The position numbers and the translations under genes were made by a program. This document shows, one piece after another, positions 22,420 to 64,000 of a stretch of DNA of 64,000 nucleotides. Location: assembly GCA_963763075.1 (NCBI GenBank), contig CAVXNF010000005.1, forward strand, positions 210,984-274,983, in the 5' to 3' direction. Positions within the stretch are counted from its first letter, which is position 1, and every line of letters starts with the position of its first letter. Origin of the DNA: an uncultured Chloroflexia bacterium (GTDB lineage: Bacteria > Chloroflexota > Limnocylindria > Limnocylindrales > CSP1-4). Below the pieces are notes generated by a model. The model was not told where the DNA came from. It saw nothing but the letters and a program-made list of their open reading frames with translations, and searched no databases.

Positions 22420-22420
22420 C

Positions 22421-25423: not shown

Positions 25424-25446
25424 GGCGCCGATCACCGAAGACCGAA

Positions 25447-25475: not shown

Positions 25476-25523
25476 GCATGTTCGGGAGGTCGCGGGGCCG
25501 ACCGGACGGAGGGACGCAGCACG

Positions 25524-28011: not shown

Positions 28012-28103
28012 GGCCGCGCCCCGGCCCACGGGCGACGCCCATCGCCCGCCGTCATCGAACGTTCGTCCCCGACCCCGTCATCGACTGAAAGGAACCGGAC
28101 CCT

Positions 28104-30799: not shown

Positions 30800-30853
30800 C
30801 GGAGACCGGCCTCGCGCGCCGCACCGGGCACGGCCGACGGCAGCGGGCCAGCG

Positions 30854-31963: not shown

Positions 31964-32041
31964 CGGCCGGTGCCCGCCGCAGCGCGGGTGACCGGCCATC
32001 GCCGATCTGACGACCCGACCCCGCATGCAGGACACGCACCC

Positions 32042-41505: not shown

Positions 41506-41517
41506 GCTGGCCGGACC

Positions 41518-43018
41518 GTGACCGACACCGCGACGCACGCCGACTGGCTCGACCGCGCCCGTGCGGTCCGGCCGCATGCCCGCCCGTTCATCGACGGCGA
41601 CTACGTCACGCCGCTCGACGGACGTCCCGTGCCCGACACGACGCCGCGCGACGGATCCGTCATCGCGGAGGTCGAGACCGCGGGCGAGCGCGACGTCGAC
41701 CGGGCCGTGCGGGCGGCGCGCGCGGCGTTCGAGGACGGCCGCTGGGCGGACCGCTCACCCGTCGCCCGCAAGCGGATCCTGCTCCGGTTCGCGGACCTCG
41801 TCCGCGAGCACGCCGACGAGCTCGCCCTGCTCGAGAGCCTCGACGTGGGCCACCCGATCGCGGACGCCACCGGCGTCGACGTGCCGGGTGCCGCGAACTG
41901 CCTCCAGTGGTACGCCGAGGCGGCCGACAAGCAGTACGGGGAGATCGGGCCGACCGGGCCGGACGCGCTGTCGCTCGTGACCCGCGAGCCGCTGGGCGTC
42001 GTGGCCGCGGTGGTGCCCTGGAACTACCCGCTGATCATCTCCGCCTGGAAGCTCGGCCCGGCGCTCGCGACCGGGAACTCGGTGATCCTCAAGCCCGCCA
42101 GCCAGTCCCCGCTGACGGCGCTCCGGCTCGCGTCGCTCGCGGCGGAGGCGGGCCTGCCGGACGGCGTCTTCAACGTGCTGCCCGGCCCGGGCGCCGTCGT
42201 CGGCGAGGCGCTGGCGCGCCACCCGGGCGTCGACAAGCTCGCGTTCACGGGCTCGATCGGGACCGGCCGCCGCCTCCTCCACGCGAGCGCCGACTCGAAC
42301 CTCAAGCCGGTCCAGCTGGAGCTCGGCGGCAAGAGCCCGCAGCTCGTCCTCGCCGACGCCCCGGACCTCGATGCCGCGGTCGAGGCGGTGGGGTGGGGGA
42401 TCTTCTACAACGCCGGCCAGACCTGCAACGCCGGCTCGCGGGTCCTCGTGCAGCGCTCGATCAAGGACGCGTTCCTCGAGCGGCTCGTCGCGTTCGCGGA
42501 GGGCCTCGTCGCCGGCGGACCCGCTCGATCCGGCCACGCGGTTCGGGTCGCTCGTCGGCGCGGAGCACCTCGAGACCGTGCTCGGCTACGTCGAGCTCGG
42601 GCGGCGCGAGGGTGCGCGCGTCGTGACGGGCGGCGACCGGGCGCTGGCCGAGACCGGTGGCGCCTACCTCCCGCCGACGATCCTCGACGGCGTCACGAAC
42701 GACATGCGCGTCGCCCGCGAGGAGATCTTCGGGCCCGTGCTCGCCGTCCTCGAGTTCGATGACCCGGACGAGGCGGTCGCGCTCGCCAACGACACCGACT
42801 ACGGGCTCGCGGCGGCGGTCTGGACCTCGGACGTGCGCCTTGCCCACCGGCTGTCGCGCCGGCTGCGGGCGGGCGTCGTGTGGGTGAACACGTTCGACGC
42901 GGCCGACGTGACGGTCCCGTTCGGCGGGTTCAAGCAGTCGGGATCGGGGCGCGACAAGAGCCTCCACGCGCTCGACGGCTACACGCAGCTCAAGACGACC
43001 TGGATGGACCTCTCGTGA
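41518..43018 (+). CDS. NAD(P)-dependent aldehyde dehydrogenase, one frameshift near 42515
   Basis: VVPWNYPL...ELGGKSPQLV (catalytic Glu)...GQTCNAGSR (catalytic Cys)...EEIFGPVLAV... Confidence 0.85.
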
Positions 43019-46706: not shown

Positions 46707-48010
46707 CTACTCTGCGGCGTCTGCGGTGGCCGCTGTCGGGACCGGCAGGCGTGGCTCCGGCACCTCTTCCAGCAACCCGTGCTCCACGAGCTGCTCAGCC
46801 ACGCGCTGGAGCTCCATCACCGGCACCCCGATGATGTCGCCGATCCCGACCAGGTCGTGCGTTCCGTCCGCGTACGCGAGGAGGTCCATGGTCGTCCGAA
46901 CCGCTCCGTAGCTGGATGTGGTGCCGAGCGTCGGATAGAGGCCTCGGCCGCCGAGGTGCGGCTCGCCGAGGCTCGTCGACCGGTACGTCCGGTTGCCCTC
47001 CAGGACCTCCAGGCAGTCGCGCAGGATGGCGTAGCCGCCCTCGAGCCCGGCGGGCGTGACGACCGTCAGGTCGTCCAGCGACGTGTGGTACTCGGGATAC
47101 TCGTGATACTTGGTGCGCATCACGCTCACGACGGGCAGGTCGATGCCCGGGCTGCAGTACTGCCGCTCGTCGCTGCCGCGGTCGAGGAACGAGTAGCGGA
47201 CGAAATCCGGATGCCTGGCCTTGAGGGTGTGGAGGGCGACCCGGTCCGCGAGCGTGCCGCCGTTCCTGGAAGGCAGGAAGGAGTACGCCCGGTCATCGCC
47301 GACGCAGGTCACGTTGAAGCCCGCCACCACGTTGGCCTTCAGGGTGTCGAGGTGGCGTGACAGGTAGACCAGCGAGCCGATGGTCTCGGGGATGAAGACC
47401 AGGCGGTAGGTGTAGTGGCGTGGCCGGCTGGCGATCCACTTCGCGAGCCACGTCGTGACCACCGGGCCGGAGAGCTCGTTGTTGGCCATCGACGGATGGC
47501 AGACGTAGGTGGACAGGAACACCTCGCTCGGCGTGGCGCCGGGAATGACGAGCTCGCCGTAGGTGAGGGAGCCGTCCTTGAGCTCGCTGTCGATCACGAC
47601 CCGGTACTGGCCGTCCTGAGGCGCTGCCGCTGGGCGTGCGACAGGCAGAAGCCCCACCGCCGCTCGTAGTAGGAGGTGACGTACGGGATCGCGGTGGGCT
47701 GGTCGACCAGCGAGTGCAGGTGCGGCTGGAGCTCGGCCAGCGACAGGGTCGCGTCGACGGGGACCGAGTAGCCGACGACGTGCAGGTTGTTCTGCTGGAA
47801 GTCGACGATCCGGTCGCCGTGCTCGTCGAGGATGTAGGCATCCCGGATGGTCCACTCGGGGGGCACGGTCCAGTCGAACGCACGGGTGCCGGTGGGTACC
47901 TCGTGGATCTCCAGGGGGAGGTGCTCGCCGAGGATGCGGAGCGTCTCGCGCACGCCGTCCCCGGTGATGCTCCGGGTGATCGGGAAGAGGCGCCGCGCGA
48001 GCGCGTGCAT
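46707..48010 (-). CDS. DUF4910/DUF2172 aminopeptidase-like (M28-fold) domain protein, one frameshift near 47630
   Basis: Recalled as a family often found in glycan loci (from memory, not checked against a database): ...[12 protein letters not shown]...VVGYSVPV...; ...[15 protein letters not shown]...; terminates convergently 36 nt from the ALDH stop. Confidence 0.5.
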
Positions 48011-48066
48011 CGCCGCGCCGGGCGCTTCATCGGCGTCCGCCACGCCGTCGGCATCCGCGCGAAGCC

Positions 48067-49131
48067 CCTCAGAATTCGTCCATCGCGCACGTCTTCCTGG
48101 GCGCGGTTGTAGTCCTCGTGACGGCCGACGTCCTGCCAGTACTCGATGATCGGGTAGCCCACCACGACCTGGCCCTCGTCCAGCAGGCGCCGGATGAGGT
48201 CGGTCATGTCGAAGCGTCGGCCGGCCGGGATGAAGTCCCAGGCGCCGGGCTCGAGCAGGTAGATGCCGGCGTTCACGAGGAGGCGGATGCGCGGCTTCTC
48301 GGTCAGGTCGGTGACGCGAGCGTCGTCGCATTCCACGACCCCGAATGGGACCTCGACCTCGTAGGTGCGAACGCCCACCGTCAGCGTCGCGGCGTGCTTC
48401 CGGTGAAAGCGCAGCATCTTCTGGTACGAGACCCGGGTCAGGATGTCGCCGTTGATCACCAGGAACGGCCCGGTCGGACGCGGGATCAGCCGGAGGCCGC
48501 CCGCCGTGCCCATCGGCTCATCCTCGGTGGCGTAGCTGATGCGGACCCCGAATGCCTCGCCGTCGCCGAAGTGGCCGACGATGGTGTCGGGCAGGTAGTG
48601 GGTGGTGAGGTGGACCTCGCTGATCCCGGCCTCGCGCAGCTGGTCGATCGTGCGCTCCAGCATCGGCCGCTCGCCCACCGGCAGCATGGGCTTGGGGACG
48701 GTCTCCGTCAGCGGCAGGAGGCGGGTGCCGAAGCCGCCGGCCATGACGACGGCCGACAGGTCCCCGGGCACATCGGCGACGAGGTTCTTGCGGAGCAGGA
48801 AGTCGATCAGGACGCCGGCTTCGTCGACAACCGGCAGGTGGTTGATGTCGTGCTGCAGCATCAGCTGCAGCGCCTCGGCCGGTTCGATGGGCGCGCGCGC
48901 GACGACGGGATCCCGGGTCGCGATGGAGCCGCACGGGTCGGCCAGCGACACCTTGTGCAGGACCGCGCGGCGAATGTCACCGTCGGTGAGGAGTCCCGCG
49001 ACCTGCCGATCCGGATGGCACAGGACGAGGCCGCCGGTCCCGGCCATGTCCAGCTGGGAGATGGCGTCGGCGATGGAGAGCTCCGGCGGCGCGACGACGG
49101 CCTCAAGAGTGTCCGGGCGCTCGTCGTCCAC
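48067..49131 (-). CDS. Tandem-CBS-domain plus sugar-phosphate nucleotidyltransferase fusion (PtmE-like), frameshift near the 3' end
   Basis: CBS pair (...[13 protein letters not shown]...[25 protein letters not shown]) followed by an NTP-transferase domain ([32 protein letters not shown]...INGDIL...); 3' end approximate. Confidence 0.7.
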
Positions 49132-49133
49132 GA

Positions 49134-49622
49134 TCAGGACCCGTGGCTGGCCGCGACGGCGGCCGACGGGTCGTTGAGGACGCGGCGACTGGCGGCGCCC
49201 GAGCCGGTCTCGCGGATCACGCCCTGGTAGTGGTCGTAGACGTTGTGGTAGCCGATGTCGCGACGCCTCGGGTTGAGGTCGTAGTCCACGTGATCGACGC
49301 AGAACCAGTTGTAGACCCAGCCCTGCCCCTCGGAATCGACGGTCTGCTGCCGGAACGCCGGCGACATGCACGACTCGAGCATCCCGTCGATCTTGTCCCA
49401 GGTGTCGTTGTAGCCCAGCAGGTGCGGGTCCACGACCTTGCGCACCGCCTGCTCGAGGCCGCCCAGGTCGACCTCGCCCGCCTGCAGCTGCCGGAGCAGC
49501 GCGACGCTGGGCTCGAGATCGATCCCGAAGATGGCCTTGAGGCGTTCGAAGGTCGCCTCCACCGATTCGTGGAGCGGTCCCTCCGTATCCACGCAATGGA
49601 CGACGTAGACCGGGCGCGCCAT
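49134..49622 (-). CDS. Hypothetical protein (162 aa) inside the nonulosonic-acid module
   Basis: MARPVYVVHCVDTEGPLHESVEATFERLKAIFG...; no family recognised; start and stop tightly packed between neighbouring genes. Confidence 0.4.
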   Translation of the reverse strand: MARPVYVVHCVDTEGPLHESVEATFERLKAIFGIDLEPSVALLRQLQAGEVDLGGLEQAVRKVVDPHLLGYNDTWDKIDGMLESCMSPAFRQQTVDSEGQGWVYNWFCVDHVDYDLNPRRRDIGYHNVYDHYQGVIRETGSGAASRRVLNDPSAAVAASHGS

Positions 49623-49652
49623 GGTGATCCTCGTGGCAGGGAGAGGATGAAT

Positions 49653-50706
49653 CTAGCGCAGGTGCTCCCAGCGGAGCACCTGGTCCTCGGCGAGGTCCGC
49701 GGCCAGCTCGCGGCCGACGGCATACGGGAGCTCGTCGGGACCGATCCCGGTTCCCGGACGCTTCGCATCCAGGTCCGCCTCGGTGAGGACGTGTCCGGCC
49801 GGCAGCGCGGTCCGCGTGACCAGGCTCCGCCGGAACTGGCGGCGCTTGACGATCTCGGCCTCCGACAGCATCCGGCGCGTGCTGCCCAGCGCCTCGTGGA
49901 TGATGCGCCCGTCCTCGACGACGGCCCGCAGCACCGCGGGATCGGACGAGATGGCGTGATCCCAGCCCTCCATCTCCCGGTCGAGGGTGAAGTGCTTCTC
50001 GATGAAGCATGCGCCCAGGGCGATGGCGGCGAGCGGGATCGCCGTCCCCAGGGTGTGGTCGCTGAAGCCGACGGGAACATCGAAGGCGCGGCGCAGGGTC
50101 TCGAGGTTGCGCAGGTGGACGGTGGACGGCGCCGCCGGATAGAGGGAGACGCAGTGGAGCAGGATGATCTCCTCGTTGCCCTGGGCGCGCACGGTATCCA
50201 TGGCTCGCTCGATCTCGCCCAGGGTGGCCATCCCCGTCGAGATCACGACGGGCTTGCCCGTCCGGGCGACATGGGCCAGGAGCGGCAGGTTGGTGACGTC
50301 CATCGAGGCGATCTTGATGAACGGGACGTCCAGTCCGGCGAGCAGGTCCGCCTCCGCCGGGGCGAACGCGCTGGAGGAGAAGGCGATTCCACGCTCCCGG
50401 GCGTGGTCGCGGGCGACGACGTGCTGCTCGGGCGTGAGCTGGTAGGCGCGCACCATCTCGCGGAGCGACCCGAAGTGCTTCTTCTTGTCCGAGTAGCTGG
50501 GATTCCGCTCGTATTCCTCGTTCGCGATGAGCGACGTCTCAGCTCCACGACTGGAACTTGACCGCGTTGGCGCCCGCCTCCGCTGCGGCGTCGATCAGCT
50601 GCAGGCAGAGATCCATGTCGCCGTTGTGGTTGGAGCCGACCTCGGCGACGATGTAGGGCGGGTTGTCGCCGCCCACGGCGACGCTTCCCAGGTTGACGGG
50701 TCTCAC
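49653..50706 (-). CDS. N-acylneuraminate-type nonulosonic acid synthase (NeuB/LegI/PseI family), one frameshift near 50545
   Basis: PYIVAEVGSNHNGDMDLCLQLIDAAAEAGANAVKFQ...IKIASMDVTN...VISTGMATLGEI... plus C-terminal SAF domain; GAAGGAG SD. Confidence 0.8.
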
Positions 50707-50789
50707 GTTGGCTCCTTCGGGGTGGTCCACTGGGATCGCAGGGGCGGGTGGGCGACGGACGCCCACCAGAGGAGGGGCGGAGGCGCCGC

Positions 50790-51621
50790 GTTCAGCGCCC
50801 GGACATAGCGGGACGAGTTCGGCCGGGTCCTCGACGACGCGCTGGTCGAAGGCCGCGACATCGGCGGCGGCTTCGCGGACCTGCGTCGCTCGGGCCGGCA
50901 GCGCCCCCGCCGGCAGGCCGTCCAGCACCAGCCGGAAGTGCTCGCGGACCAGCGCCGTGTCGGCCCGCACGCGCTCCGCCGTGAACGGCGACCGGATTCT
51001 GGCCATGTTTGCGCCGTGCTGGCGATAGTCCATTCGTGGCGTCGGATCGAAGGCCAGCCGTGCGCCCTGCAGCCAGGCCATCGTGATCAGGTACCAGTCC
51101 ACCAGGGCGGCCGCGGCCGGGATCGGGAGGCAGGCTCGCAGCACGTCGGACCGGTAGGCCGTGTTCGAGAGCCCGAACGCGTTGGTGCGGGGCAGGGTGG
51201 ATTCGGTCTCCCCTTCGCCCGGCGTCGCGAGCGACAGCCCCAGCGGCTGTCCAGCCTCGTCGACCAGGCGCAGGCCGCAGGCGGCGACATCGGCGCCTTC
51301 CAGCCAGGCGCGTGCCGCAGCGACGCGATCCGGGTGCAGGAGGTCGTCGCTGTCGACGAGGACCACCGCCTCGTAGCGGTCGGCGATCCGCGCCAGCGCC
51401 TGCTGGCGCACCTGGGCGGGCGTGAACCCCGGTTCGGCGACGACGAAGGTCGCGGCCGGCCGAGTCCCCAGCTGCGCCGTGACCGCCGTCTCGGTCAGCC
51501 CGTCCAGGCTGATCCAGAGATCGAAGTCGCGGTCGGCCTGTGCCTGGACCGACGCGTACCACGCGTCAAGAAAGCGGGCGGCACCGGGGTAGACGGCGGT
51601 GTAGAGGGCAATCGCGCTCAT
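50790..51621 (-). CDS. GT2-like (GT-A fold) glycosyltransferase, frameshift(s); 3' end approximate
   Basis: IALYTAVYPGAARFLDAWYASVQAQADRDFDLWISLDG (GT2 N-terminal pattern); DSDD (DxD-like); ATGA overlap with the upstream gene. Confidence 0.5.
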
Positions 51622-52314
51622 GAACGCCCCATCAGCGCGTCTGCCAGCCGCCAGTCGTCCTCGGTGTCGATGTCGATCGCATGCGTCCAGTCGATCTCCC
51701 AGCCGGTCCTGCCGGCAAGGTGGAACGTCCCCGCGCGACGCAGGGCGTCCGTCCTGGCCCACCAGACGGCTCCCGTGGGGCAGAAGAGCTCGGGAAGGTC
51801 CTGGCTGCGCTCGTCGCATCGCATCCGGGAAGAGGGGGTCCAGCGAACCGTCCGCCGCCCGGCGCATCGCCCACCAGGGGCTCTGCCAGCCGTACCGCGC
51901 GACCGAGATCTGCGCCTCGGCCGGCCGTTCGGTGAACTGGCGATGGCTGGCCACCACGTCGTCGGCCGTGCGCAGCGGACAGTTCGGCATCAGCTGGCAG
52001 ACCTCGAGGTACGCCTCTCCGGCCTCCTCCAGGCGATCCACGACGTCGATCGTCGCCCGCGAGACGGGCGTGATGTCATCGGCCAGGGCGGGGGCTCGAA
52101 GGAACGGAACCTCGGCGCCCAGGGCCCGGGCCACGGCGGCAATCTCGGCATCGTCGGTCGACACCACGACCCGGGCGAAGAGGCCGCTGCCCAGCGCGGC
52201 CTCGACCGAGTAGGCGAGCAGCGGCCGGCCATGCATCTCGCGGATGTTCTTGCGCGGTACCCGCCGCGATCCGCCGCGGGCGGGGATCACCGCGAGGGCG
52301 CCGCCGGCGCTCAT
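51618..52314 (-). CDS. CMP-nonulosonic acid synthetase (acylneuraminate cytidylyltransferase family, NeuA/LegF/PseF-like), one frameshift
   Basis: LAVIPARGGSRRVPRKNIREMHGRPLLAYSVEAALGSGLFARVVVSTDDAEIAAVARALGAEVPFLR...; C-terminus in another frame. Confidence 0.75.
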
Positions 52315-52981
52315 CGGATCCTCCGGGCGGGAGCCCCGACGTACGTGCCCGGCTCGGTCAGGTCGCTCCGTGACCACCGCTCCGGCACCGATCAGGCAGC
52401 CCTCCGCGATCCGGACGCCGTGGATGACCACGGCTCCGGCACCGACGAAGGTGTGGTCGCCGATCGTGACCCCGCCGCTCACCGTGGCTCCGGGGCCGAT
52501 GTGGACGTTCGTGCCGAAGCGACAGTCGTGCTCCACGGTGGCGTTGGTGTTGACGACGCAGGTCGGCCCGGTGACAACACCCGCGTTGACGACGGCCCCG
52601 TCGAAGACGGCCGTGCCGGCCCCCAGCTCCACCTCGGCGTTGACCACGGCGTCGGGAGAGACGAAGGTGGGGAATCCGTACCCCAGCGCCTCGGCTGCGG
52701 CCTGGATCCGGGCACGGCGCGTCGGTCGCGTCCACCTTGCCGACGCCCATGGCCGCCGCACAGCCGGGGTGGCGGGCCAGCAGGGCCGGCAGCACGTCGT
52801 CGCCGCCCGCATGGGGAACGCCCAGCACGGGCCCGACGTCGCGCGGATCCACATAGCCGGCGATCGTCCAGGGCAGCTTGCGGATGACGCTGATGAGCAC
52901 CTTGGCATGGCCACCCCCGCCGATGACGACGAGAGGACGGCTGTGTCTCTCCGGCGCCGTGCGGACTTCGGGATCGGGCAT
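52311..52981 (-). CDS. NeuD/PglD-family sugar N-acetyltransferase (left-handed beta-helix), about 2 frameshifts
   Basis: N-terminal LVVIGGGGHAKVLISVI...; hexapeptide repeats ...GTNVHIGPGATVSGGVTIGDHTFVGAGAVVIHGVRIAEGCLIGAGAVV...; corrected C-terminus ...GAPARRIR. Confidence 0.7.
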
Positions 52982-53430
52982 GGCCCCAGCATCGCGCAGT
53001 CGCGGGCGCCGCGCCACGGATTCGAACGTCGGGTGGGTCATGCGCTCGCCAGCGCGGTGCGTCACGCTGCCTCGACGAAACGGTGTCCCCGCATGTGGCT
53101 CCGTCGGAACGGGTCTGAAGGCGGACCGGCTCGTCCGCATGCGAGCCGGCGAGGACCCTGTCGCATATAGTGCCCACAGGATCGGGTCGCAGGGTGATGC
53201 ATCCCGCTGCGTCGGACGACCGTCTGCGCGGACGGCACCGCTCGCCTCGTTCGGGGGCCGCGTGATCAAGGGAGAGACGTGACATCCTGGTTGGCCGCTG
53301 TGTGCCGCGAGCGGGACGGGCGTGAGGTTCGTCGTTCGTCGGCAGATCCCTCCCGGCGCCCGCTCGTCCATACGTCTCGTCGGCCTCGAGTCGTCGGCGC
53401 GTCGCGAGCCGACCCGCGGGCGGCGCGCCC

Positions 53431-55323
53431 ATGACGCAGGCGAACGTCTCCGAGGCCCGAACGAACCCGTTCGTCAGCTCTCAGGTCAGACGTTCTCTCG
53501 CGATGCTCACCCCCAGAGAGCGACGCACCTACTGGGCGGCCGTGGGGCTGCAGATGGCGACATCCCTGCTGGATCTGGCCGGCGTGCTGCTGTTCGGGAT
53601 GGTCGGGGTCATCGCCGCGTCCGCCGCCCAGGGCGTCGCGATCCCGGACTCGATCCAAGTGGTGCTGTCGTGGTTTGGCGTGGCAGATGTCCCAGCGACC
53701 ACGGCGAGCCTTGTGCTCGCGGGGATCGCAGCCCTGCTGCTGATCCTCAAGACCATCGCGTCCCTGTGGATCCTGCGTTGGGTCACGAAGTTCCTCACCA
53801 TGTCCTCGACGCGAGTCTCATGCTCAGATGTGCGCGGATTTCTTATGCACTTCCGATCGTGCATGTCAACCGCTTCGAAAGCCAGTTTTCAGCCTTCGCC
53901 CTGGTGAGCGGCGTGAGCGGGGCAATCGTCGAGCACACTGACCAACGCGATGGTCATCTGGGTGGAACTCACCCTCCTCGTCGTCCTCGGCGGGGCCCTC
54001 CTGCTGCTCAATCCGCTCATCGCCTTGTTCGCCGTCGGGTTCTTTGGTTTGATCGCGATCGTCATGAACCAGATCCTCAAGGGGTGGGCCTACTCGACCG
54101 GCAAGGTGATGGCTGAAACTGGGTGGGAGTCCAATGTGACGGTCCAGGACGGGATCGCGACGTATCGAGAGATCACCGTGGCAAATCGTCGACAGCACTA
54201 CATCGACCGGTTCCGATCGCTCAGGCAGGCAGGCTCCGAAGCCTACGCCGACCAGCAGTTCATCGGCCAGCTGCCGCGCTATGGGATGGAGATCGCACTC
54301 GTTGTCGGCGCAGGCCTGCTGGTCATCGCCCTGCTCCAGTTAGGCACCGTGGAGAGCGCCCTCGCCTCCCTCGCCCTGTTCCTCACCGCCGCGACCCGCG
54401 TCATGCCATCCATGCTCCGGCTGAATGGTTCCCGGATCACCTTGCGGTCCCTGGGGCCACGCGCGGAGTACGCCTTCACGATGGCGACCCACATCCGGGA
54501 GCACGCGACAGCGGCCACGTTGCGGGACACTCCCCTGGCGACGCTCCGCAGCTGCGGTCGGCGGCGGGCTTCCGGGCAGGCGCGAACCGGTCCTTGAGGT
54601 CGCTGTCCGGGACCTGACCGTGGACTACCCGGGCTCCGATACCCCTGCCATTAACGGGATCACCTTCACGTTGCCCCCCGGCGGAGCCCTTGCAGTCGTC
54701 GGCCCTTCGGGAGGCGGCAAGTCCACGCTTGCAGATGCCATCCTTGGAGTCGTGCAGCCCTCGGCGGGCTCTGTCCGGATCGGCGGTTTGTCTCCGGAGG
54801 CAGGTTGTCCGCCGCTATCCCGGCTTGGTCGCGTACGTTCCGCAGTCCGTCGCTCTGGTCTCGGGCTCGGTGCGGGACAACGTCGCGCTCGGACGCACGC
54901 AGCGATGAGATCGACGATGACCGAGTCTGGGCTGCATTGAAGCGAGCGCATCTCGCTGACTACCTGGCGGACGCCCGCGACGGGCTCGACACCGAAGTCG
55001 GGGAGCGTGGCGTGCAGTTGAGCGGTGGCCAGCGGCAGCGGCTGGGGATCGCTCGCGCGCTGTACACGGACCCGAGGCTGCTGGTGATGGACGAGGCGAC
55101 CAGTGCCCTTGACGCAGAGATCGAGAACCTGGTGACACAGACGATCGAGGAACTGGGGTCAGAAGTGACCACGATCACGATCGCCCACAGGCTGGCGACC
55201 ATCCGGCGCGTCAGACACGGTCATCTACCTCGAACGCGGCCGCTTGCTGGCACAGGGGACCTTCGAGGAAGTACGAAATGCGGTGCCGCGGTTCGATCAC
55301 CAGGCGAACTTGCTGGGGTTGTG
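53431..55323 (+). CDS. Fused permease/ATPase ABC exporter (type I exporter fold), at least 5 frameshifts
   Basis: Six-TM N-terminal half; NBD with Walker A VVGPSGGGKSTL, signature LSGGQRQRLGIARAL, Walker B LLVMDEATSALD, H-loop TITIAHRL. Confidence 0.75.
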
Positions 55324-55427
55324 AAGCCGCGGTGGCCAGGAGGCCGTGAGAGGGCTTACGGTCCGGGCGCGGAGCCGGGCGGCGGCTTTGTTGATGGGGC
55401 TAGCGCGGGAGCTGCGGTGGATCCCGG

Positions 55428-56432
55428 TCAGGCAGGACGGTTCGAGGTCGCTTGGCTGCCAACGTGCGGCGCCACTTGCGCCACCTCCTTCTTGGGGATC
55501 CGCCGGACCTGCCGCTCAGTGCTTGTCGGGTCGATCAGCAGACGGCCACGAAACCATCGCCACACAGAGACCGGGATCGCAGCAAGGACGCGCGGCAGGA
55601 GCTTCAAGCCGACCGATGTGCGGCCGTGCTTGATGTGCCACAGGGGGCGGATGGTGAAATCGACGAACATCGCCCACACTTCGTACGTGGGACGGTTCGA
55701 CAGGTAGTAGTACAGGTATCCAGCGAGCACCCGCCAGTTGCCATCGGGCCCGCTGCCCCACTCAGCAGCACGCTCGCCTCCCCTCGGCGCCCGGAGATGA
55801 AGCAGGCGAGCCTGCGGGTCGAAGACGAGCAGGGCGCTCGCGGCATTCAGCCGGTCTGAGAAATCCTCGTCTTCCCCATGCGTCAGGATGTTCTCGTCCC
55901 ACCCCCCGATGGCAAACGCACTTGCTACCCGAAGGCTGTTATTCGTACCAACGAAGGAAAGGCAGCTGGCGAACGCGGGCGCGTCCCACCCTCCCATCAT
56001 GAGTCTGTCGTACCACTTCACGTACCACTCTTTGGAGTCCGCGTCCCATTCGTACACCGGGCCTGTCACGCCATCCACTCGGTCGTCGGCGAAGTGTCGG
56101 ATGTGGTTCTCGACGTAGTCCGGGCCGACGCGACTGTCGTCATCAGATTGCAGGATGATGTCCGACCGACATTCCCGAAGCAATTGGTTCCTCGCCTTGG
56201 TGGTGCCGCGTAATTCTTGGTACACCACCCGCACTGGGAACGCGTGGCTCCAGTTGGTCGTCGGTATGGGCTGCCGCTTGTGGCGGGCCGTCTGGTCGAC
56301 GATCACAACCTCGTCAGGGAGGTGGGTCTGGACTGCCAGATCATCCAGGAGCGCGGCGACGTACGGGTAACGATCGAGAGTGGCGATGCCGACCATGATC
56401 GTGGGGAGGCGCCCGCTCGTGTCGATGCTCAC
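55428..56432 (-). CDS. Family 2 glycosyltransferase, intact
   Basis: LPTIMVGIATLDRYPYVAALLDDLAVQT...VVIVDQ...; DxD-like QSDDD. Confidence 0.7.
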   Translation of the reverse strand: MSIDTSGRLPTIMVGIATLDRYPYVAALLDDLAVQTHLPDEVVIVDQTARHKRQPIPTTNWSHAFPVRVVYQELRGTTKARNQLLRECRSDIILQSDDDSRVGPDYVENHIRHFADDRVDGVTGPVYEWDADSKEWYVKWYDRLMMGGWDAPAFASCLSFVGTNNSLRVASAFAIGGWDENILTHGEDEDFSDRLNAASALLVFDPQARLLHLRAPRGGERAAEWGSGPDGNWRVLAGYLYYYLSNRPTYEVWAMFVDFTIRPLWHIKHGRTSVGLKLLPRVLAAIPVSVWRWFRGRLLIDPTSTERQVRRIPKKEVAQVAPHVGSQATSNRPA

Positions 56433-57592
56433 GCCCCGATCCCTGCGATGGTGCCCGCTGGGGTGGCCCGCTCCGCAGCCTCCACGAGCGCGACCACCTC
56501 CGCGATCTGTTGCGGCGTCAGGGAGAGCGAGCACGGCAGGTTCAGCACGGTGTCGTAGAAGCGGGGCGCGCGCGTGATGCCGTGCGCCTGCATCTCCCGA
56601 TACGGCTTCTGCAGGTGGTTGAGATACCAGAGCGGGCGGACCTGGACCTCGGCCGCAATGCATGCTTCCAGGAGCTCGCGCTTCATGTCGGCGCTGTCGC
56701 ACAGGAGGGCGTAGAACCAGCGGTTCGATTCGCTCCAGGCCGGCTGGTCGAGGAGACGGGACGGGCCGAGCGCCTCCTGGTAGCGGGCGAAGTTCGCGCG
56801 CTTGATCGCGACCCGCTCGTCGAGGTTCTCGAGCTGCGCCAAGCCGATCGCCGCAAGGACGTTGTTCATCCGGTAGTTGTAGCCGACGCTGTTGTGGACG
56901 TACTCGAGGCCGTCCTCCTTGGCCTGCGTGGTCAGGTACCGGGCCTGGCGGGCGATCTCGTCGTCGTCGGTCATGATCGCCCCACCGCCGCCGGTGGTCA
57001 CGATCTTGTTGCCGTTGAAGCTCAGGCAGCTGATCGGCGCGAGGGTGCCGCACATCCGACCCTTGTAGCGCGAGCCCAGGCTCTCGCTCGCGTCCTCCAC
57101 GATCGCGAGGCCGTATTCCTCTGCCAATGCCAGGATCGGATCCATGTCGACCGAGGTGCCGAAGACGTGGACCGGGACGATGGCCGAGACACGCCGGCCT
57201 GTCGTGCGGTTGGTCAGCACGCCGTCACGGACGACGCACTCGTCGGCGAGGAAGCTCCGCACGCCCTCGACGTCCATGTTGCAGAACTCGTCGCAGTCGA
57301 CGAACACCGGCCAGGCGTGCACGTAGCGAACCGCGTTGACCGGGGCGATGAACGTCACCGTGGGCACGATGACCTCGTCGTCGGGCTGGACGCCCGACAA
57401 CATGAGCGAGATGTGGATCGCCGACGTGCCCGAGTTGCAGGCGACGACGTGCTTCACACCGAGATAGCTCGCGAGGAACTTCTCCATCTCCCACACGAAC
57501 TCGCCGTTCGCGGAGATCCAGCGGGTGTCCAGGCAGCGGGTGATGTATTCGAGTTCGCGCCCACCAAGGGACGGCTCGGACAGCGGGATCAT
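56429..57592 (-). CDS. DegT/DnrJ/EryC1/StrS-family PLP-dependent sugar aminotransferase (PseC/LegC-like), intact
   Basis: MIPLSEPSLGGRELEYITRCLDTRWIS...; PLP lysine region LSFNGNKIVTTGGGGAI. Confidence 0.85.
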   Translation of the reverse strand: MIPLSEPSLGGRELEYITRCLDTRWISANGEFVWEMEKFLASYLGVKHVVACNSGTSAIHISLMLSGVQPDDEVIVPTVTFIAPVNAVRYVHAWPVFVDCDEFCNMDVEGVRSFLADECVVRDGVLTNRTTGRRVSAIVPVHVFGTSVDMDPILALAEEYGLAIVEDASESLGSRYKGRMCGTLAPISCLSFNGNKIVTTGGGGAIMTDDDEIARQARYLTTQAKEDGLEYVHNSVGYNYRMNNVLAAIGLAQLENLDERVAIKRANFARYQEALGPSRLLDQPAWSESNRWFYALLCDSADMKRELLEACIAAEVQVRPLWYLNHLQKPYREMQAHGITRAPRFYDTVLNLPCSLSLTPQQIAEVVALVEAAERATPAGTIAGIGA

Positions 57593-57605: not shown

Positions 57606-58571
57606 TTACGAGTTGCGGTACCGGGCCGCGTACGGGTCGGCGATCAGGCCCGTGGAGATGGCGTCTGCCACCTCGCGGATGCCGTCGCGCAGCCGCATCC
57701 GTGGAGTGAACCCCAGGGCGGCGATGCGCTCGAAGGAGACCCGGTAGTCCCGTGGGTCCTCGGCCCGCTCGACGTACTCGAGACGAACCGGAATCTGCTC
57801 GGCGACCGCCTCCGCGATCGCGCGCTTCTGGTAGTTCTCGTCGTCGGCGCCGACGTTGAAGACCCGGCCGGCAACCCGCCCCCGGTCCTGCTCCAGGATC
57901 ATGGTCACGGCGTTCGCGATGTCGCGCACGTGGCAGTACGGTCGCCAGAAGTCCGGCCCGAAGACCTCCAGCTCGCCCTTGAGCAGGGCATCGCGGGCGA
58001 ACTCGTTGATCGTCAGGTCGAAGCGCGGCCGGAGCGACAGGCCGTAGACGGTGGCGAAGCGCAGGATGGTGAAGTCCAGAGCCACCGAACGGGCCATGAG
58101 GAGCTCCTCGAACCGGACCTTCAGCTCGGCGTAGAGGCTGACCGGGCGGAGGGGTGCGTCCTCATCGAGGACGGCATCGGCCTCCATCCTGCCGTAGTTG
58201 CTGCAGGTGGAGGCGAACACGAAGTGCCCCACGCCGTGCTGATCGCTGAGCTCGAGCAGGCTGCGCGAGCCGTCCCAGAGCGTCTGGGTGGCGAGCTCGG
58301 GCTGTGCCTTGCAGGCCGGATCGCCGACGATCGCGGCGAGATGGACCACCGCATCGATCTGCGAGGCCGAGAACACCGCCTCCAGCGCATGGGGGTCGCG
58401 GACGTCGACCTTGTGGAACGAGAAATCCGGGTTGGAGAGCAGGTCCAGGAGCGCCTCGCCGCCGAACAGGAGGGCGTCCGCCGCGACGACGCGGTGGCCC
58501 CTGGCAAGCAGCTCGCGGGATACCATCGAGCCGATATAGCCGGCACCGCCGGTGACAAGAACCGTGCTCAC
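57606..58571 (-). CDS. NAD-dependent epimerase/dehydratase (extended SDR), intact
   Basis: VLVTGGAGYIGSMVSRELLARGHRVV (Rossmann fold)...YAELK (YxxxK); GGGGAGAG SD. Confidence 0.8.
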   Translation of the reverse strand: MSTVLVTGGAGYIGSMVSRELLARGHRVVAADALLFGGEALLDLLSNPDFSFHKVDVRDPHALEAVFSASQIDAVVHLAAIVGDPACKAQPELATQTLWDGSRSLLELSDQHGVGHFVFASTCSNYGRMEADAVLDEDAPLRPVSLYAELKVRFEELLMARSVALDFTILRFATVYGLSLRPRFDLTINEFARDALLKGELEVFGPDFWRPYCHVRDIANAVTMILEQDRGRVAGRVFNVGADDENYQKRAIAEAVAEQIPVRLEYVERAEDPRDYRVSFERIAALGFTPRMRLRDGIREVADAISTGLIADPYAARYRNS

Positions 58572-58707
58572 GAAGTCATGCTCTCCCCGATCGCGACCCG
58601 CGCCAGAACGCGGGTCCGCATCGTAGCAGGCGGGCTGCCCGGATCCGGCTGGCGAGACCTGCGTCGGGTCGGGGGCTGGTGATGGAGGCCACTGGGGACC
58701 CCTTCCG

Positions 58708-59304
58708 ATGGCACGAAGGCTGACGGACATCTGGCTCGCCCTGGCCGGCCTGGCAATCGCGGCGCCGTTGCTGGCCGCGATCGCCGTGGCCGTGCGCCTG
58801 CGTGACGGAGCGCCCGTCATCTACCAGGCCCGCCGGGCCGGCCAGCACGGTCGCGAGTTCCGTCTCTTCAAGTTCCGGACGATGGTCCCGGCCGGCGGCT
58901 CGTCGGTGACCATCTGGGCGGACCCGCGGGTGACGCCGCTGGGCCGGCGTCTGCGGCGGCTCAAGCTCGACGAGCTGCCGCAGCTGTTCAACGTGCTGCG
59001 CGGGGAGATGAGCATCGTTGGTCCGCGTCCGGAGGACCCCAGCTACGTCGCCCTGTATAGCGACGAGCAGCGGCGCGTGCTCTCGGTCAAGCCCGGCATC
59101 ACCGGCGTCGCCGCGCTGGAGTACGCCGACGAGGAATCGCTTCTGCGCGGCGAGGACTGGGAGGCGACGTACCGGCTCACGATCATGCCGGCCAAGCTCC
59201 AGCTAGAGCTGGACTACCTCGCCAGGCGGTCGGCCCGGACCGATGCGGAGCTGATCCTGCGAACGGCGGCGGTCGTGTTTGGTCACCTGCTCCCGCGCAG
59301 GTAG
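58708..59304 (+). CDS. Small bacterial sugar transferase (monotopic phosphoglycosyl transferase, PglC/WbaP-C-terminal type)
   Basis: Single N-terminal TM/re-entrant helix; ...FKFRTM...DELPQLFNVLRGEMSIVGPRPE... Confidence 0.85.
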   Translation: MARRLTDIWLALAGLAIAAPLLAAIAVAVRLRDGAPVIYQARRAGQHGREFRLFKFRTMVPAGGSSVTIWADPRVTPLGRRLRRLKLDELPQLFNVLRGEMSIVGPRPEDPSYVALYSDEQRRVLSVKPGITGVAALEYADEESLLRGEDWEATYRLTIMPAKLQLELDYLARRSARTDAELILRTAAVVFGHLLPRR

Positions 59305-59477
59305 CGTGCGCGCGTGAGGCGCCGGTCCCCGAGCCAGCGCGCACGAGTTAGGTGCGGTTGACGCTCGCCACGGCCCAGACCATGATTCGCCGACGCAGGC
59401 CAGCTCGGATCGCGGCATTGCCGGACGCCGGGACAACCATCAGGCAATCATGTGCCCGCGCATGGAGAGAGTGGCCA

Positions 59478-61091
59478 GTGGACGTCCGACACCTCCTCGT
59501 CATCATCCGCGCGTGGCTGCCGCTTCTCGTGTTGGCCGCGGTGCTTGCCGGGGCGGCCGGGTTCACCGCGAGCGCCCTCCAGCCGAACGTGTACGCCGCC
59601 CGCGCCTCCCTGATCGTCGGCGAATCCCTGTCCAACGCGAACCCCAACCAGGCCCAGCTCCAGGTCTCGCAGAGCCTTGCTGCCACCTACACGGCGATCG
59701 CCAAGAAGCGGCCCCTGCTCGAGAAGGTGTCCGCCGACATCGGTGGGGCCCTGTCCCCGGGCGAGCTCGACGGGATAATCGAGGTCCGGGCGGCGCCGGA
59801 CGTGCCAATCCTCACGATTGAGGTGGAGGACACCGACGCCGACCGGGCAGCCGTAATCGCCAACTCGCTGGCCGAGGCGCTGATCGCGGCGTCGCCGACC
59901 GTACAGGGCCGCGAGGAGGCGTTCATCCAGTCGATTGACGCGGCACTGGCCGACACCCAGGCCACTATCGAGTCGACCCAGGCGCGCCTCGCTGAGCTGG
60001 CGGCCCTCGGTCAACGGACCGCGGCCCAGGACGCGGAATTCCGGGCAGTCGAACAGCGGCTTGTCGACCTGCGCTCGACGTTCGCCACGTTGCTGGGCTA
60101 CTCGTCGGCTGACGCCTCGAACCGGATCGCGATCGTGGAGAGTGCCCTCCCATCTACCGAGATCGTTGCGCCGCGGACGCTGCTCAACACGCTGCTGGCG
60201 GTGGCCATCGGCGTGGCCGCCATCCTCGCCCTCGCGTTCGTCACCGAGCAGCTGGACGATACGGTCAAGGATTCGGAAACCGTACAGGAGCTCACCGGCC
60301 TCAGCACCCTGGGGACGATCGCCAGGCTGAAGAAGCAGCGTGGCCGCAGCGAGATCTACCGGCTGGTGGCGCTGCTCTACCCTCGATCCAGCGCGGCGGA
60401 GGCATACCGCGCCCTGCGGTCGAATGTGGAGTTCGCCTCAGTCGATGCTCCCTTGCGATCACTGCTGGTGACGAGCTCGTCCGGGAGCGAGGGCAAGACG
60501 ACGACGGCCTGCAACCTCGCGGTCGTGTTCGCACAGGCTGGTCAGCGAGTCCTGCTGGTCGACGCTGACCTCCGCCGGCCCGGCGTCCACGTCATGTTCA
60601 ACCTCGCCAACACCACCGGCCTGACCACGCTGCTCCGCGAGTCCCCGGCCGCCATCGACAGCGTTGCCCAGGACACCGAAGAGCCGCACCTGCGGGTGAT
60701 CACCACGGGCCCGCTGCCGCCCAACCCGGCCGAGCTGCTCGGATCGATGCGGATGCGCACCCTGATGGCCAGTCTCCTGGAGCGGGCGGACCTCGTGGTG
60801 TTCGACAGCCCGCCGGTGCAGTCCGTTGCGGACGCCGCGGTGCTCAGCACCTTGGTCGACGGCACACTGGTCGTGGTTGCGGCAGGGAGCAGCCGCAGGC
60901 GCTCGATCCGGCTCACCATGGAGACCCTCCAGCGGGCCGGGGCAAACGTGCTGGGCGTCGTGCTCAACCGCGTGTCGGCCAAGTCGGATCGTGGCTACGA
61001 CAGCTACTACGGCAGCAACGAGGCGGCGGTCGATGCGGGGGGGCAGGGCGCCGCGAGCGCCGCCGCGTCTCCGGGCCGCTCAACCTCGTGA
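59478..61091 (+). CDS. Polysaccharide co-polymerase/BY-kinase (Wzc-like; Wzz domain plus CpsD/CapB-type tyrosine autokinase)
   Basis: Two TM segments flanking a coiled-coil periplasmic domain; Walker A SSGSEGKTTTACNL; Walker B-like LVVFDSPP; C-terminal Tyr cluster YDSYYG. Confidence 0.8.
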   Translation: MDVRHLLVIIRAWLPLLVLAAVLAGAAGFTASALQPNVYAARASLIVGESLSNANPNQAQLQVSQSLAATYTAIAKKRPLLEKVSADIGGALSPGELDGIIEVRAAPDVPILTIEVEDTDADRAAVIANSLAEALIAASPTVQGREEAFIQSIDAALADTQATIESTQARLAELAALGQRTAAQDAEFRAVEQRLVDLRSTFATLLGYSSADASNRIAIVESALPSTEIVAPRTLLNTLLAVAIGVAAILALAFVTEQLDDTVKDSETVQELTGLSTLGTIARLKKQRGRSEIYRLVALLYPRSSAAEAYRALRSNVEFASVDAPLRSLLVTSSSGSEGKTTTACNLAVVFAQAGQRVLLVDADLRRPGVHVMFNLANTTGLTTLLRESPAAIDSVAQDTEEPHLRVITTGPLPPNPAELLGSMRMRTLMASLLERADLVVFDSPPVQSVADAAVLSTLVDGTLVVVAAGSSRRRSIRLTMETLQRAGANVLGVVLNRVSAKSDRGYDSYYGSNEAAVDAGGQGAASAAASPGRSTS

Positions 61092-61174
61092 CCAGCCCTG
61101 ACGCCGATGGCTCCGGCGGCGCCACCTTCCGCAGACCTCCTTCATGACCGTCTCCCTCACCGGCGTCGCGAGTC

Positions 61175-62441
61175 GATGAGGCTCCTGTATATCAACCACT
61201 ACGCGGGGGGCCCGGCGTACGGGATGGAGCACCGCCCGTACTACCTCGCGCGCGAGTGGGTTCGCCGCGGGCATGAGGTCCTGCTCGTTGGCGCATCGTT
61301 CGCCCATGTGCGCAACCACCAGCCCGTGGTCACCGGCCCCTTCTCCCGGGAGGAGCGTGATGGCATCCGGTTCGTGTGGTGCCGCACGCCGGCCTATACC
61401 GGCAACGGGCCCGGGCGCGTCGCGAACATCGCCACGTTCCTCTACCGATTGCGCCGCTGGCGAGGCTGGCTCGACATGGTCCCTGACGCGGTCATCGCAT
61501 CCTCCACGTACCCGGCCGACATGGGCGTCGCACGAAGGATCGCGGCAGCCCACGGGGTGCCGCTCGTCTGGGAGGTCCACGACCTATGGCCGCTGTCGCC
61601 GATCGAGATCGGAGGCATGTCCCGGCGACACCCGTTCATCGCCTGGATGCAGCGAGCCGAGGACGCCGCCTGTCGTGATGCCGACCTCGTGGTCTCGATG
61701 TTGCCGCTCGCCGAGCCGCACCTGCGCGAGCACGGCCTGCCTCCCGGCCGGTTTGAGTACGTGCCAAACGGGGTCGATCCCGAGGAGTGGTCGGAGGAGA
61801 CCGACCTGGCGGCGCCGTCGGTGCTGCCCCCCGGTCACGTATTGGCCATGGCTGAAGCTCGGTCACGTGGCGACCTGCTCGTTGGGTACGCAGGCGCCCA
61901 CGGGATTGCCAACGATCTCGATGCGCTGCTCGATGCAGCGACGCTGACGCGCGAAGAACCCGTGACATGGCTGCTCGTCGGCAACGGACCGGAGAAGCCG
62001 CCACTCGAACGCCTCGCGGCCAGTCGCGGCCTGCACCGGGTCAAGCTCCTGGACCCGGTGCCCAAGACCGCGATCCCAGCGCTCCTGCGCGGCATGGACG
62101 TTCTGTACATCGGCCTCCGGCCGGAGGCAGTGTTCCGTTTCGGGGTCAGCCCCAACAAACTGATGGACTACATGATGGCCGGCCGCCCGATCGTGAGCGC
62201 CATCGCCGCCGGCAATGACCCGGTGGGCGAGGCAGGGTGCGGCGTCACTGTCGCGCCCGGCCGTCCGGATGCGATCGCTGCCGCGGTGCGACAGCTGGCC
62301 GCCACCACCCCGGGAGAGCGGGACGCGATGGGCATGCGTGGACTTGACTACGTGCGCGCCCGACACACGTACCCGGTGCTCGCCACGCGGTTCCTCGAGG
62401 CTATCGAGGCCGTTCGTGCCGGACGCGGTCCCGGTGCCTGA
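61175..62441 (+). CDS. GT4 (GT-B fold) glycosyltransferase, intact
   Basis: N-terminal GT4-like domain (LLYINHYAG...); C-terminal ...LLVGNGPEKPPLERLAASRGL...MDYMMAGRPIV... Confidence 0.7.
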
Positions 62442-62759
62442 TGGCATACTCGTTTCGAGCGAGGTTGCGCCAGTTCGCCGAACGCGCGGACGCCGACGTC
62501 CTCATGATGGCCCCCGAGTGATGGCTGACATAGCGATCGCTGGCCGCGAGACCAGCTGTCACTGCGAGGATTGGCGCGTGGCCCGCTGGACGAGTGCGAT
62601 CGATGACCTGCAACGCGTAGTCGAGGCCCTCCGATTCGACTTCTCCCGGAGACGTGACCGACGAACCCGGTCCGACGGACTGCTATGAGCTCCGCGCCCA
62701 ACAAACCCCCGGGAAGCGAGCACGCTCATGTGCCAACGCGGCCTCGACCACATGTCGCG

Positions 62760-64000
62760 ATGGCGCTCTACGGCGACCTGACGTTCGACAGCCCGCGTCC
62801 GCAAGGAAGCGCGGACCCTTGCCGAGGCGGGCTACGACGTGACGGTCGCCTGTCTGGCCTCGCAAGGTGCATCCGGAGACCTGCCGCCCGGTGTGAAGGT
62901 CGTTGTCCTTGAACCTGCGCGCCTGTCGCCCACCCGAGGATCGCTGAACCCCTTCTTCCACCCCGCGCGCCTCCGCGGGGGCGCCACGCTACGTCGCGCC
63001 ACCTGGCTGTTTGCATTCGTCCGGGGCATTCGATCCTGGGGGCGACTGGCGGTCGCCAGTTGCGGCGACGTGGACGCCTGGCATGCCCACGATCTGACCG
63101 GCCTGATCGCCATCGCGCCGAGCCTTCCGGCGGGGGCACGGCTGGTCTACGACTCGCACGAGCTGTTCCTCGAGCAGGGAACCGCCCTGCGACTGCCCGG
63201 ATTCGCGCGACGCCTCCTCCGCTGGTACGAGGCGCGCCTCGTGTCCCGGTCCACCGCGGTCATCACGGTCAACGCCGAGATCGCGGCCGAGCTGCAGCGG
63301 AGGTATCGACCTCGCCGGATCGACGTCATCCACAATTGCCCAAGTGGCTGGTTTCCGCCACCGGCGCAGTCCTCCCTCCTGCGTGACTCGACGGGCATCC
63401 CTAGCGACTCGCTCGTCGTGCTCTACCACGGGGGCATCACCGCCAATCGGGGCATCGAAGCGCTGATGCAGGCGATCGGCAGCGAGCGGCTTCGGGACGT
63501 TCACCTCGTGCTCATGGGCTTCGGCGAACGGCAGGAGGAGTACCTGCGCGCGTCCCGTTCGGGCCCCGGACGCGACCGGATTCACTTCGCGGATCCAGTC
63601 AGGCCGTCGGAGCTGTTGACCTGGGTCGCGTCAGCCGACATCGGGGCGATGCCAAACCCAGGCCTGGAGCTCAACGACCGATTCTCGACGCCAAACAAGC
63701 TGTTCGAATGCCTTGCAGCAGGGACGCCCGTCGTGGCCAGCGACTTCCCGACGATGCGCCGCATCGTGCTCGACGATCCCGATGGCCCTCTCGGTGCCTT
63801 GTGCGATCCGACCCAAATCGACTCAATCGTCAACGCAATTCTTTCGATCGGTCGACTGGATCCCGCCGCCCGAAGCGACCTCCGAGCCCGTTGCCTCCGG
63901 GCAACCGCGGCGCGTTGGAACTGGGATCGCGAGGCGGACAAGCTCCGGGGGATCTATGCCTCGATCTTCGCGGAACGCAACGTGAGCGTGCGCGACGCCC
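62760..64000 (+). CDS. GT4 glycosyltransferase, 3' end beyond the window, one frameshift near 62800
   Basis: MALYGDLTFDS(shift)PRVRKEARTLAEAGYDVTVACL...; C-terminal ...LYHGGITANRGIEALMQAIG...VMGFGE...FECLAAGTPVVASD...; reads through the window end. Confidence 0.7.

Follow-up and report, generated by a model that had tools for sequence, protein, structure and literature searches.

The window analyzed here, a 64,000-nt stretch of contig CAVXNF010000005.1 (assembly GCA_963763075.1), carries a seven-gene module on its minus strand at 46707–52981 that is predicted to supply a nonulosonic acid activated with cytidine monophosphate (CMP). All families named in an earlier note on this DNA, which had described seven co-directional minus-strand genes, were recovered with strong scores, and the limits given there coincide exactly with our corrected gene models (NeuD ATG at 52981, DUF4910 stop at 46707). 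In the direction of transcription, the module comprises a NeuD/PglD-family (LegH-like) N-acetyltransferase (52311–52981; 222 aa corrected), a putative CMP-nonulosonate synthetase of the NeuA/LegF/PseF-like type (51618–52314; 231 aa corrected), a conserved 305-aa protein of predicted GT-A/GT2 fold, termed U305 (50703–51621), a NeuB-family nonulosonate synthase with a SAF domain (49653–50706; 350 aa corrected), a 162-aa open reading frame (ORF) that is the remnant of a protein termed X465 (49134–49622), a CBS-pair protein with a sugar-1-phosphate nucleotidyltransferase domain (CBS-NT) and a PtmE-like architecture (start at about 49131, end at 48069), and a DUF4910/DUF2172/HTH_47 ‘aminopeptidase-like’ protein of the Cj1295 family (46707–48083). 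Also on the minus strand, the DegT aminotransferase and the dehydratase previously placed at 56.4–58.6 kb were located as an intact LegC-family pyridoxal phosphate-dependent aminotransferase of 387 aa (56429–57592) and an extended short-chain dehydrogenase/reductase (SDR; 57606–58571), which is paired with it and presumed to be C4-oxidizing or 4,6-dehydrating. The description of the seven genes as overlapping at their stop and start codons applies to four junctions (ATGA at NeuD/NeuA and at NeuA/U305, GTGA at U305/NeuB, and a 14-nt overlap at CBS-NT/DUF4910) but not to the other two, where gaps of 30 nt and 2 nt separate the 162-aa ORF from NeuB and from CBS-NT, respectively.

These models required sequence correction. 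The G+C content of the window (70–75%) makes raw ORF lists noisy, and third-position GC indicated that the minus strand is coding without interruption between 46.7 and 53.0 kb, with a frame that switches several times without stop codons. As deposited, the sequence does not give the seven genes as intact ORFs, and seven single-base edits were needed: an extra base lies near 52722 and 52366 (both NeuD), 51812 (NeuA), 50813 (U305), 50542 (NeuB), and 48076 (CBS-NT), and one base is missing at 47618 (DUF4910). At each edit position, the window departs from every one of seven relatives, two of which (L005 and L006) are Illumina assemblies; DNA identity to these relatives is 87–94% over most of the module and 77–81% over two short stretches. 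Once edited, the seven genes are full length, free of internal stops, and colinear with their intact L006 counterparts. In the raw sequence, a first frame holds NeuD profile positions 69–188, PseF positions 1–158, and the first 38 NeuB residues, a second frame holds PseF positions 156–219, and a third the remainder of NeuB; DUF4910 is split at ~47615, and the extra base near 48076 abolishes the CBS-NT stop codon, leaving that frame without a stop until 47293. An 817-aa raw ORF (50539–52992) that joins parts of NeuD, NeuA, and U305 to the NeuB N-terminus was considered as a real fusion and rejected, because these genes are separate and in different frames in the relatives, and each junction in the window carries a single extra base.

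We then considered whether the module could be a decaying pseudogene cluster, in which case the frameshifts, together with a 909-bp deletion in X465, would be real and the pathway dead in the host. Consistent with this, the 6.3 kb of the module contain seven indels that disrupt the frame, an adjoining ABC exporter gene contains about ten others, these indels fall outside homopolymer runs, the neighboring LegC, SDR, and glycosyltransferase family 2 (GT2) genes are almost indel-free, and X465 is deleted both in the window and in close relatives. However, a frame-aware hidden Markov model analysis revealed stop-less frame changes throughout the window, with ~39 coding segments continuing in another frame (9, 9, 4, 0, 6, 4, 6, and 1 breaks per 8-kb bin) and no enrichment in the module bin. 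When stitched, CopA (632–3319), FabD/FabF (5284–7823), and an aldehyde dehydrogenase (41517–43012; Aldedh positions 8–460 of 461) are complete, with Pfam matches running end to end across the junctions, and LeuC (22423–23790) is broken in the same way. Where the relatives permit comparison, the indels of the window are mostly insertions in non-homopolymer contexts. Correction leaves zero nonsense codons, third-position GC holds at 0.9 in the shifted frames, and the ratio of non-synonymous to synonymous substitution rates (dN/dS; 0.246 for the window versus L006 and 0.208 versus L005) matches that between the intact Illumina loci L005 and L006 (0.235). The X465 deletions, for their part, are all in frame and keep the downstream gene junctions. 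Taken together, the window-wide breaks, the unraised dN/dS, and the lack of nonsense codons after correction indicate that the module owes its seven frame breaks to indel errors of the assembly and not to gene decay, and a dead pathway is thus very unlikely. Three stretches of the window, at 14.9–18.5, 25.6–33.7, and 55.5–62 kb, are free of breaks.

All seven sequence-tested core enzymes fall in known enzyme families, and the LegC and NeuD homologues are also above curated cutoffs. The corrected NeuD protein matched TIGR03570 (NeuD/PglD/VioB) with 199.4 bits (cutoff 160.8) over positions 2–202 of 202, compared to 138 bits and positions 69–188 only for the raw frame; its Pfam match is to Hexapep. 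The aminotransferase matched LegC (TIGR04181) with 444.8 bits (cutoff 420) over the full 1–359 of 359 positions, versus 219.6 bits for PseC (cutoff 423.5), alongside PF01041 (E 1e-91). Both of the partners on which the earlier note had made its proposal depend are therefore predicted to be sound, the aminotransferase as read and the acetyltransferase after its two single-base corrections. CBS-NT combines PF00571 with PF00483 (E 2e-47), a PtmE-like domain arrangement, PtmE being the GTP-specific hexosamine-1-phosphate guanylyltransferase of the legionaminic acid pathway (PMC5378307).

For the synthase, the raw NeuB ORF already matched PF03102 (256.8 bits, cutoff 22.1; E 2e-76) and the SAF domain PF08666 (43.6 bits, cutoff 21), and the corrected protein scored 342.6 bits with TIGR03569 (NeuB; cutoff 399.65), aligned over 2–328 of 329 positions, and 283.7 bits with TIGR03586 (PseI; cutoff 340.25). 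The cytidylyltransferase matched PF02348 (CTP_transf_3) with 66.4 bits (cutoff 22.6) and PseF (TIGR03584) with 195 bits (cutoff 205.7), versus 34–47 bits for KdsB models (cutoffs 155–281). We examined on this basis whether the pair could instead serve 3-deoxy-D-manno-octulosonic acid (KDO) or 3-deoxy-D-arabino-heptulosonate 7-phosphate (DAHP) type metabolism, the case that the earlier note had named as refuting its own reading. All that points this way are weak tail matches to DAHP synthase and KdsB models (27.8 bits for DAHP synthase against 342.6 for the NeuB family), and with a SAF domain present and the pair embedded among LegC- and NeuD-family partners, such a role has next to no probability.

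Overall, the module probably encodes a CMP-activated 5,7-diamino nonulosonic acid pathway of the legionaminic kind, located in a variable surface-glycan island of Candidatus Limnocylindrales, a reading to which we assign a probability of roughly 0.7. The earlier note had left the choice between a legionaminic and a pseudaminic pathway open: the LegC-family aminotransferase and CBS-NT favor the first, and no PseB-like enzyme was found in favor of the second. Compared to the GDP-linked legionaminic acid pathway of Campylobacter jejuni and Tannerella forsythia (PtmE, LegB, LegC, LegH, LegG, LegI, and LegF; PMC5378307), the module shares a LegC-family aminotransferase, a NeuD/PglD-type N-acetyltransferase, a NeuB with SAF domain, a short CMP-sugar synthetase, and a dedicated sugar-1-phosphate nucleotidyltransferase. 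It differs in lacking LegG/NeuC, in having an SDR that is not of the LegB family, in carrying three extra conserved genes (U305, X465, and DUF4910), and in its location, which is a polysaccharide or cell-surface glycan island of a soil Chloroflexota and not a flagellin or O-glycan locus. The sps system of Bacillus subtilis (SpsM, C, D, G, E, and F; PMC7439481) resembles it in its monoderm-type host and in its synthase, SpsE being the top solved structure for the NeuB homologue, although PseI and the 6NCS synthase score almost as high; unlike the window module, it uses UDP-GlcNAc and a separate hydrolase, SpsG, and contains no CBS-nucleotidyltransferase, X465, or DUF4910.

Several observations weigh against this assignment, the first being that the NeuB homologue and the cytidylyltransferase remain under the NeuB, PseI, and PseF equivalog cutoffs, which means that neither the stereochemistry of the product nor the exact sugar can be read from the scores. 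No LegI-specific model matched the synthase, and its similarity to the solved structures, which were the sole references, showed no clear preference (180.8 bits for SpsE, 1VLI; 178.3 for 6NCS; 171.9 for PseI; 150.3 for NmNeuB). A second point is the SDR, which lies outside both the LegB family (TIGR04180, 64 bits versus a cutoff of 475; GalE, 122 bits) and the PseB family (TIGR03589, 26.5 bits versus 407.75). Its best PDB match (6VO6, 167 bits) is an ‘epimerase/dehydratase’ without characterized function, and a literature search on this structure returned nothing relevant. In 4,6-dehydratases, the catalytic Thr is followed by an acidic pair. Judging from its motif, (A/S)STCSNYG...YAxxK, found in 61 of 62 module homologues, the SDR has no such pair next to its catalytic Thr.

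A third point against a legionaminic product concerns the hydrolyzing 2-epimerase, which the earlier note had named, together with the 4,6-dehydratase, as the unclear steps, an appraisal that our searches bear out. No Epimerase_2 (NeuC/LegG) gene was detected in the window or in any module across 81 loci using tblastn with E. coli WecB (E ≤ 10, ~10 kb of flank per locus), no module protein matched a NeuC model in NCBIfam, and the SDR scores likewise revealed no PseB or LegB. As a positive control, the same search detected Epimerase_2 genes in L002 and beside a second NeuB in L079 (E 2e-16) and L023 (E 0.003). By comparison, every characterized legionaminic acid pathway contains a hydrolase at the step that removes the nucleoside diphosphate (NDP), namely the NeuC-type LegG in C. 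jejuni, T. forsythia, and Halorubrum, and SpsG fills this step in B. subtilis (PMC5378307, PMC6137143, PMC7439481). In L023 (5104–7556) and L079 (17137–19352), a second, canonical NeuB/NeuC-like/NeuA cluster is found a few kb away from the module that lacks NeuC, so that one and the same genome can hold pathways of both types.

The candidate that we consider for this step is U305. Of 80 loci, 79 encode it, and in 77 it lies no more than 200 nt upstream of NeuB. It yielded no significant match in Pfam, NCBIfam, or profile PDB searches, the nearest being sub-cutoff Pfam GT2 hits (E 0.057–0.13). Five aspartates are invariant (D40, D90-x-D92-D93, and D175). Its assignment to NDP removal is by elimination, as no NeuC/LegG homologue is present and U305 co-occurs universally with the synthase. 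To be counted on the other side, U305 retains all hallmarks of an inverting glycosyltransferase, including the DxD motif and a candidate base, and may simply be a transferase.

These gaps could also be explained if the product were a nonulosonic acid other than legionaminic acid, with U305 or X465, as an NDP-sugar hydrolase not related to NeuC, freeing the hexose. Such a product could be a stereoisomer made without C2 epimerization, or a 5-hydroxy, 7-acylamino sugar derived from a GDP-mannose/perosamine-type precursor, for which no 2-epimerase would be required. The lack of NeuC/LegG in 81 loci, in a search that does detect NeuC-type genes in the canonical clusters of L079 and L023, is consistent with this scenario, as are the atypical SDR and a NeuB that is equidistant from the SpsE, PseI, and NeuB structures. 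The best NCBIfam match of CBS-NT is moreover a mannose-1-phosphate guanylyltransferase, and the source names of the aminotransferase cluster include ‘perosamine synthetase’. However, these names are automated, the guanylyltransferase match is far below its cutoff (164 versus 440 bits), and the aminotransferase exceeds the curated LegC-family cutoff. In addition, a NeuC gene could sit elsewhere in these genomes, of which ~10 kb of flank is visible per locus. A non-legionaminic product appears unlikely, and we retain the legionaminic-type assignment.

The 162-aa ORF, previously listed as a protein of unclear identity, does exist but is not an independent gene. BLASTP against the L006 protein and the junction DNA revealed it as X465 residues 1–142 fused in frame to residues 446–465, with 909 bp (303 codons) missing. 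X465 is intact (465 aa) in L001, L003, L005, L006, and L007. The closest Limnocylindrales relatives carry different lesions: in L081 (96.5% DNA identity; 11469–11819), residues 1–49 are fused to 398–465, a 116-aa allele present on five contigs; in L002 (~10900–11300), residues 1–15 are fused to ~370–465; and in L004 X465 is lost entirely. At 3516–8575 of L004, the NeuD/NeuA start lies ~4 kb from the remaining module, with an insert that holds a second X465 copy (64% identical) and a NeuA-like gene (30% identical), and this cluster looks rearranged or partly duplicated. The deletions being in frame, the downstream gene junction is kept in the Limnocylindrales losses. Internal repeats were rejected as the cause of the 909-bp deletion, as the 465-aa protein has none, and microhomology at the deletion junction amounts to a few bases at most. 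Two apparent further deletion alleles were likewise discarded: P0020 (354 aa) is a gene call truncated at its N-terminus, and P0374 (237 aa) is a frameshifted one.

Across phyla, X465 has >1,200 homologues at ~70% identity, all unnamed and without Pfam domain, and it had no match in Pfam, NCBIfam, single-sequence PDB, or profile PDB searches. Conserved His/Asp/Cys motifs (HCxDTEG, WFCVDH, HYHPH, and TNHDF) accompany a putative resemblance to the CE4/NodB-like deacetylase fold, and the AlphaFold2 model has a pLDDT of 68 in which residues 151–277 are poorly modeled. Its absence from 14 of 80 loci, combined with the repeated independent losses, suggests an accessory function. The DUF4910 protein, present in 42 of 80 loci, matched its Pfam family with E 2e-82 and PDB 3K9T with E 1e-107, the latter a ‘putative peptidase’ that we take to be a Clostridium acetobutylicum protein. 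It corresponds in family description and size (~435 aa) to Cj1295 of C. jejuni (PIRSF015244). Cj1295, the sole studied member of this family, is required for the exchange of the 5-N-acetyl group in pseudaminic acid for a di-O-methylglyceroyl group, and its biochemical activity is a hypothesis in the source paper; PIRSF015244 members are reported to adjoin sialic-acid-synthase genes, and C. acetobutylicum is among the species with members (PMC3068675). Unlike the window protein, Cj1295 acts in a pseudaminic acid context (the 5-N-di-O-methylglyceroyl form).

Next, we evaluated how widely this gene arrangement is distributed. A scan of species-representative genomes with a NeuB fragment yielded 297 relatives, from which 80 loci were kept, and the order NeuA-U305-NeuB-(NeuD)-X465-CBS-NT-(SDR-LegC)-DUF4910 recurs in these 80 loci, which belong to Chloroflexota, Acidobacteriota, Actinomycetota, Verrucomicrobiota, Nitrospira, and others. 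The module is thus a widespread, uncharacterized variant, of a cluster type common in soil bacteria. The earlier note had regarded such modules as best known from Gram-negative pathogens, but the rarity this implied is contradicted by the 297 species-level genomes carrying a NeuB relative, and surveys have attributed most nonulosonate synthases to environmental bacteria (PMC8208679, PMC8157484). Homologous modules in Geobacter sulfurreducens and ~80 soil and sediment genomes share the genes and gene order of the window, with the ~70% cross-phylum identity of X465 noted above. In Acidobacteriota, NeuD follows NeuB and SDR-LegC follows CBS-NT, whereas the window is set apart by its 303-codon X465 deletion. 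The G. sulfurreducens locus (L083, 4389–18508) encodes SDR, LegC, NeuD, NeuA, U305, NeuB, X465, CBS-NT, Acyl_transf_3, DUF4910, a pyruvyl transferase, and an ABC exporter, the Acyl_transf_3 and pyruvyl transferase genes being additions relative to the window. It lies inside an exosortase (EpsH/EpsI) and extracellular polysaccharide (EPS) locus and contains no Epimerase_2 gene. A literature search, limited to the searchable library, returned no paper on this module and none linking Geobacter, Chloroflexi, or Acidobacteria to it.

The host is, judging from its closest sequence relatives, a soil bacterium of Candidatus Limnocylindrales (class Limnocylindria, phylum Chloroflexota), and not an actinobacterium. 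The ketol-acid reductoisomerase IlvC of the window is 100% identical to a protein encoded on a 610,630-bp contig, to which the 162-aa ORF and the LegC protein also map. The 90% cluster of this protein, like the named relatives nearest to it, is assigned to Candidatus Limnocylindrales, and the genome scan placed the closest relatives of the module in ‘uncultured Chloroflexia’ and Limnocylindrales metagenome-assembled genomes. The ‘actinobacterial-type genome’ of the earlier note must therefore be abandoned. IlvC itself belongs to a branched-chain amino-acid block (14956–33723) that was identified by reading translations and also includes IlvD, LeuD/LeuC, IlvB, IlvN, LeuA, LeuB, and a second LeuA/CimA-like gene. 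G+C content is 0.66–0.71 in the glycan island (46.7–64 kb) versus 0.72–0.75 in the housekeeping part (1–46000), and the window ceases to be syntenic with its closest relatives at ~46.7 and ~59.3 kb. Both features suggest a variable or exchanged surface-glycan island.

That the locus is one of surface-glycan assembly, as first proposed, is upheld by the genes that flank the module. An ABC exporter (53326–55707, plus strand, start approximate) is divergent from the module and has an intact 694-aa homologue in L006; ~10 single-base indels, the highest local density seen, split the window copy into three ORFs. Its Pfam match is partial (ABC_tran), being limited to the nucleotide-binding domain, and the N-terminal ~470 aa are without match. 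A GT2 glycosyltransferase (55428–56444, minus strand; PF00535, E 5e-16) adjoins the LegC gene. Beyond the SDR, the plus strand carries a small Bac_transf phosphoglycosyl transferase (58627–59304; PF02397, E 5e-53), a Wzc-like co-polymerase with a Wzz domain and a P-loop bacterial tyrosine kinase-like domain (59352–61091; PF02706 plus CbiA/ParA/AAA_31), and two family 4 glycosyltransferases (GT4) within 61092–63999, one at 61092–62441 and the other from 62782 to the window end (Glyco_trans_4_4 and Glyco_trans_1_4).

Family membership and gene context are the basis for each step of the route that we propose. CBS-NT would form an NDP-hexosamine, most likely GDP-linked, which the SDR would oxidize or dehydrate at C4(/C6). 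The LegC-family aminotransferase would then add an equatorial 4-amino group, and the NeuD-family enzyme would N-acetylate the amino sugar. Removal of the NDP, for which U305 is the best candidate, would release a free hexose that the NeuB homologue would condense with phosphoenolpyruvate, and the cytidylyltransferase would convert the product to its CMP-sugar. Exchange or removal of N-acyl groups is a probable accessory, tailoring role for two further proteins, the Cj1295-like DUF4910 protein and the deacetylase-like X465, and the loss of 303 codons suggests that the X465 step is probably off in the genome of the window. The resulting sugar would be added to a lipid-linked glycan begun by the Bac_transf transferase and exported via the ABC exporter and Wzc-like machinery. 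The most likely role of the module is to supply a legionaminic-type CMP-nonulosonate for a surface glycan putatively assembled by the neighboring Bac_transf, GT2/GT4, Wzc-like, and ABC-exporter genes.

What appears mildly new here is a predicted pathway variant without NeuC/LegG, with an SDR outside the LegB family, coupling of NeuB to a GT-A protein, and a pair of tailoring-type proteins, one of which is recurrently deleted. For this window, the lesson is that its broken frames reflect the quality of the data and not biology, and that the host is a Limnocylindrales bacterium. Nonulosonic acids have been detected chemically in many environmental microbes, and the genes behind most of them are not assigned. 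As this type of module spans hundreds of soil and sediment genomes and the genetically tractable G. sulfurreducens, and lacks the hydrolyzing 2-epimerase that marks all characterized routes to legionaminic or sialic acid, knowing which of its three additional conserved genes frees the hexose for NeuB would improve the prediction of the sugar from the genome. A broader proposal, which we put forward as doubtful, is that the modules represent a cross-phylum nonulosonate pathway in which the NeuC/LegG (or PseG) step has been replaced by an unrelated enzyme, likeliest U305, and in which X465 has been repeatedly switched off by independent in-frame deletions in Limnocylindrales. If this were true, the NeuC-less pathway may yield a nonulosonic acid not yet described, and the recurrent in-frame deletions of X465 would be a way to diversify the surface sugar while the downstream genes stay coupled.

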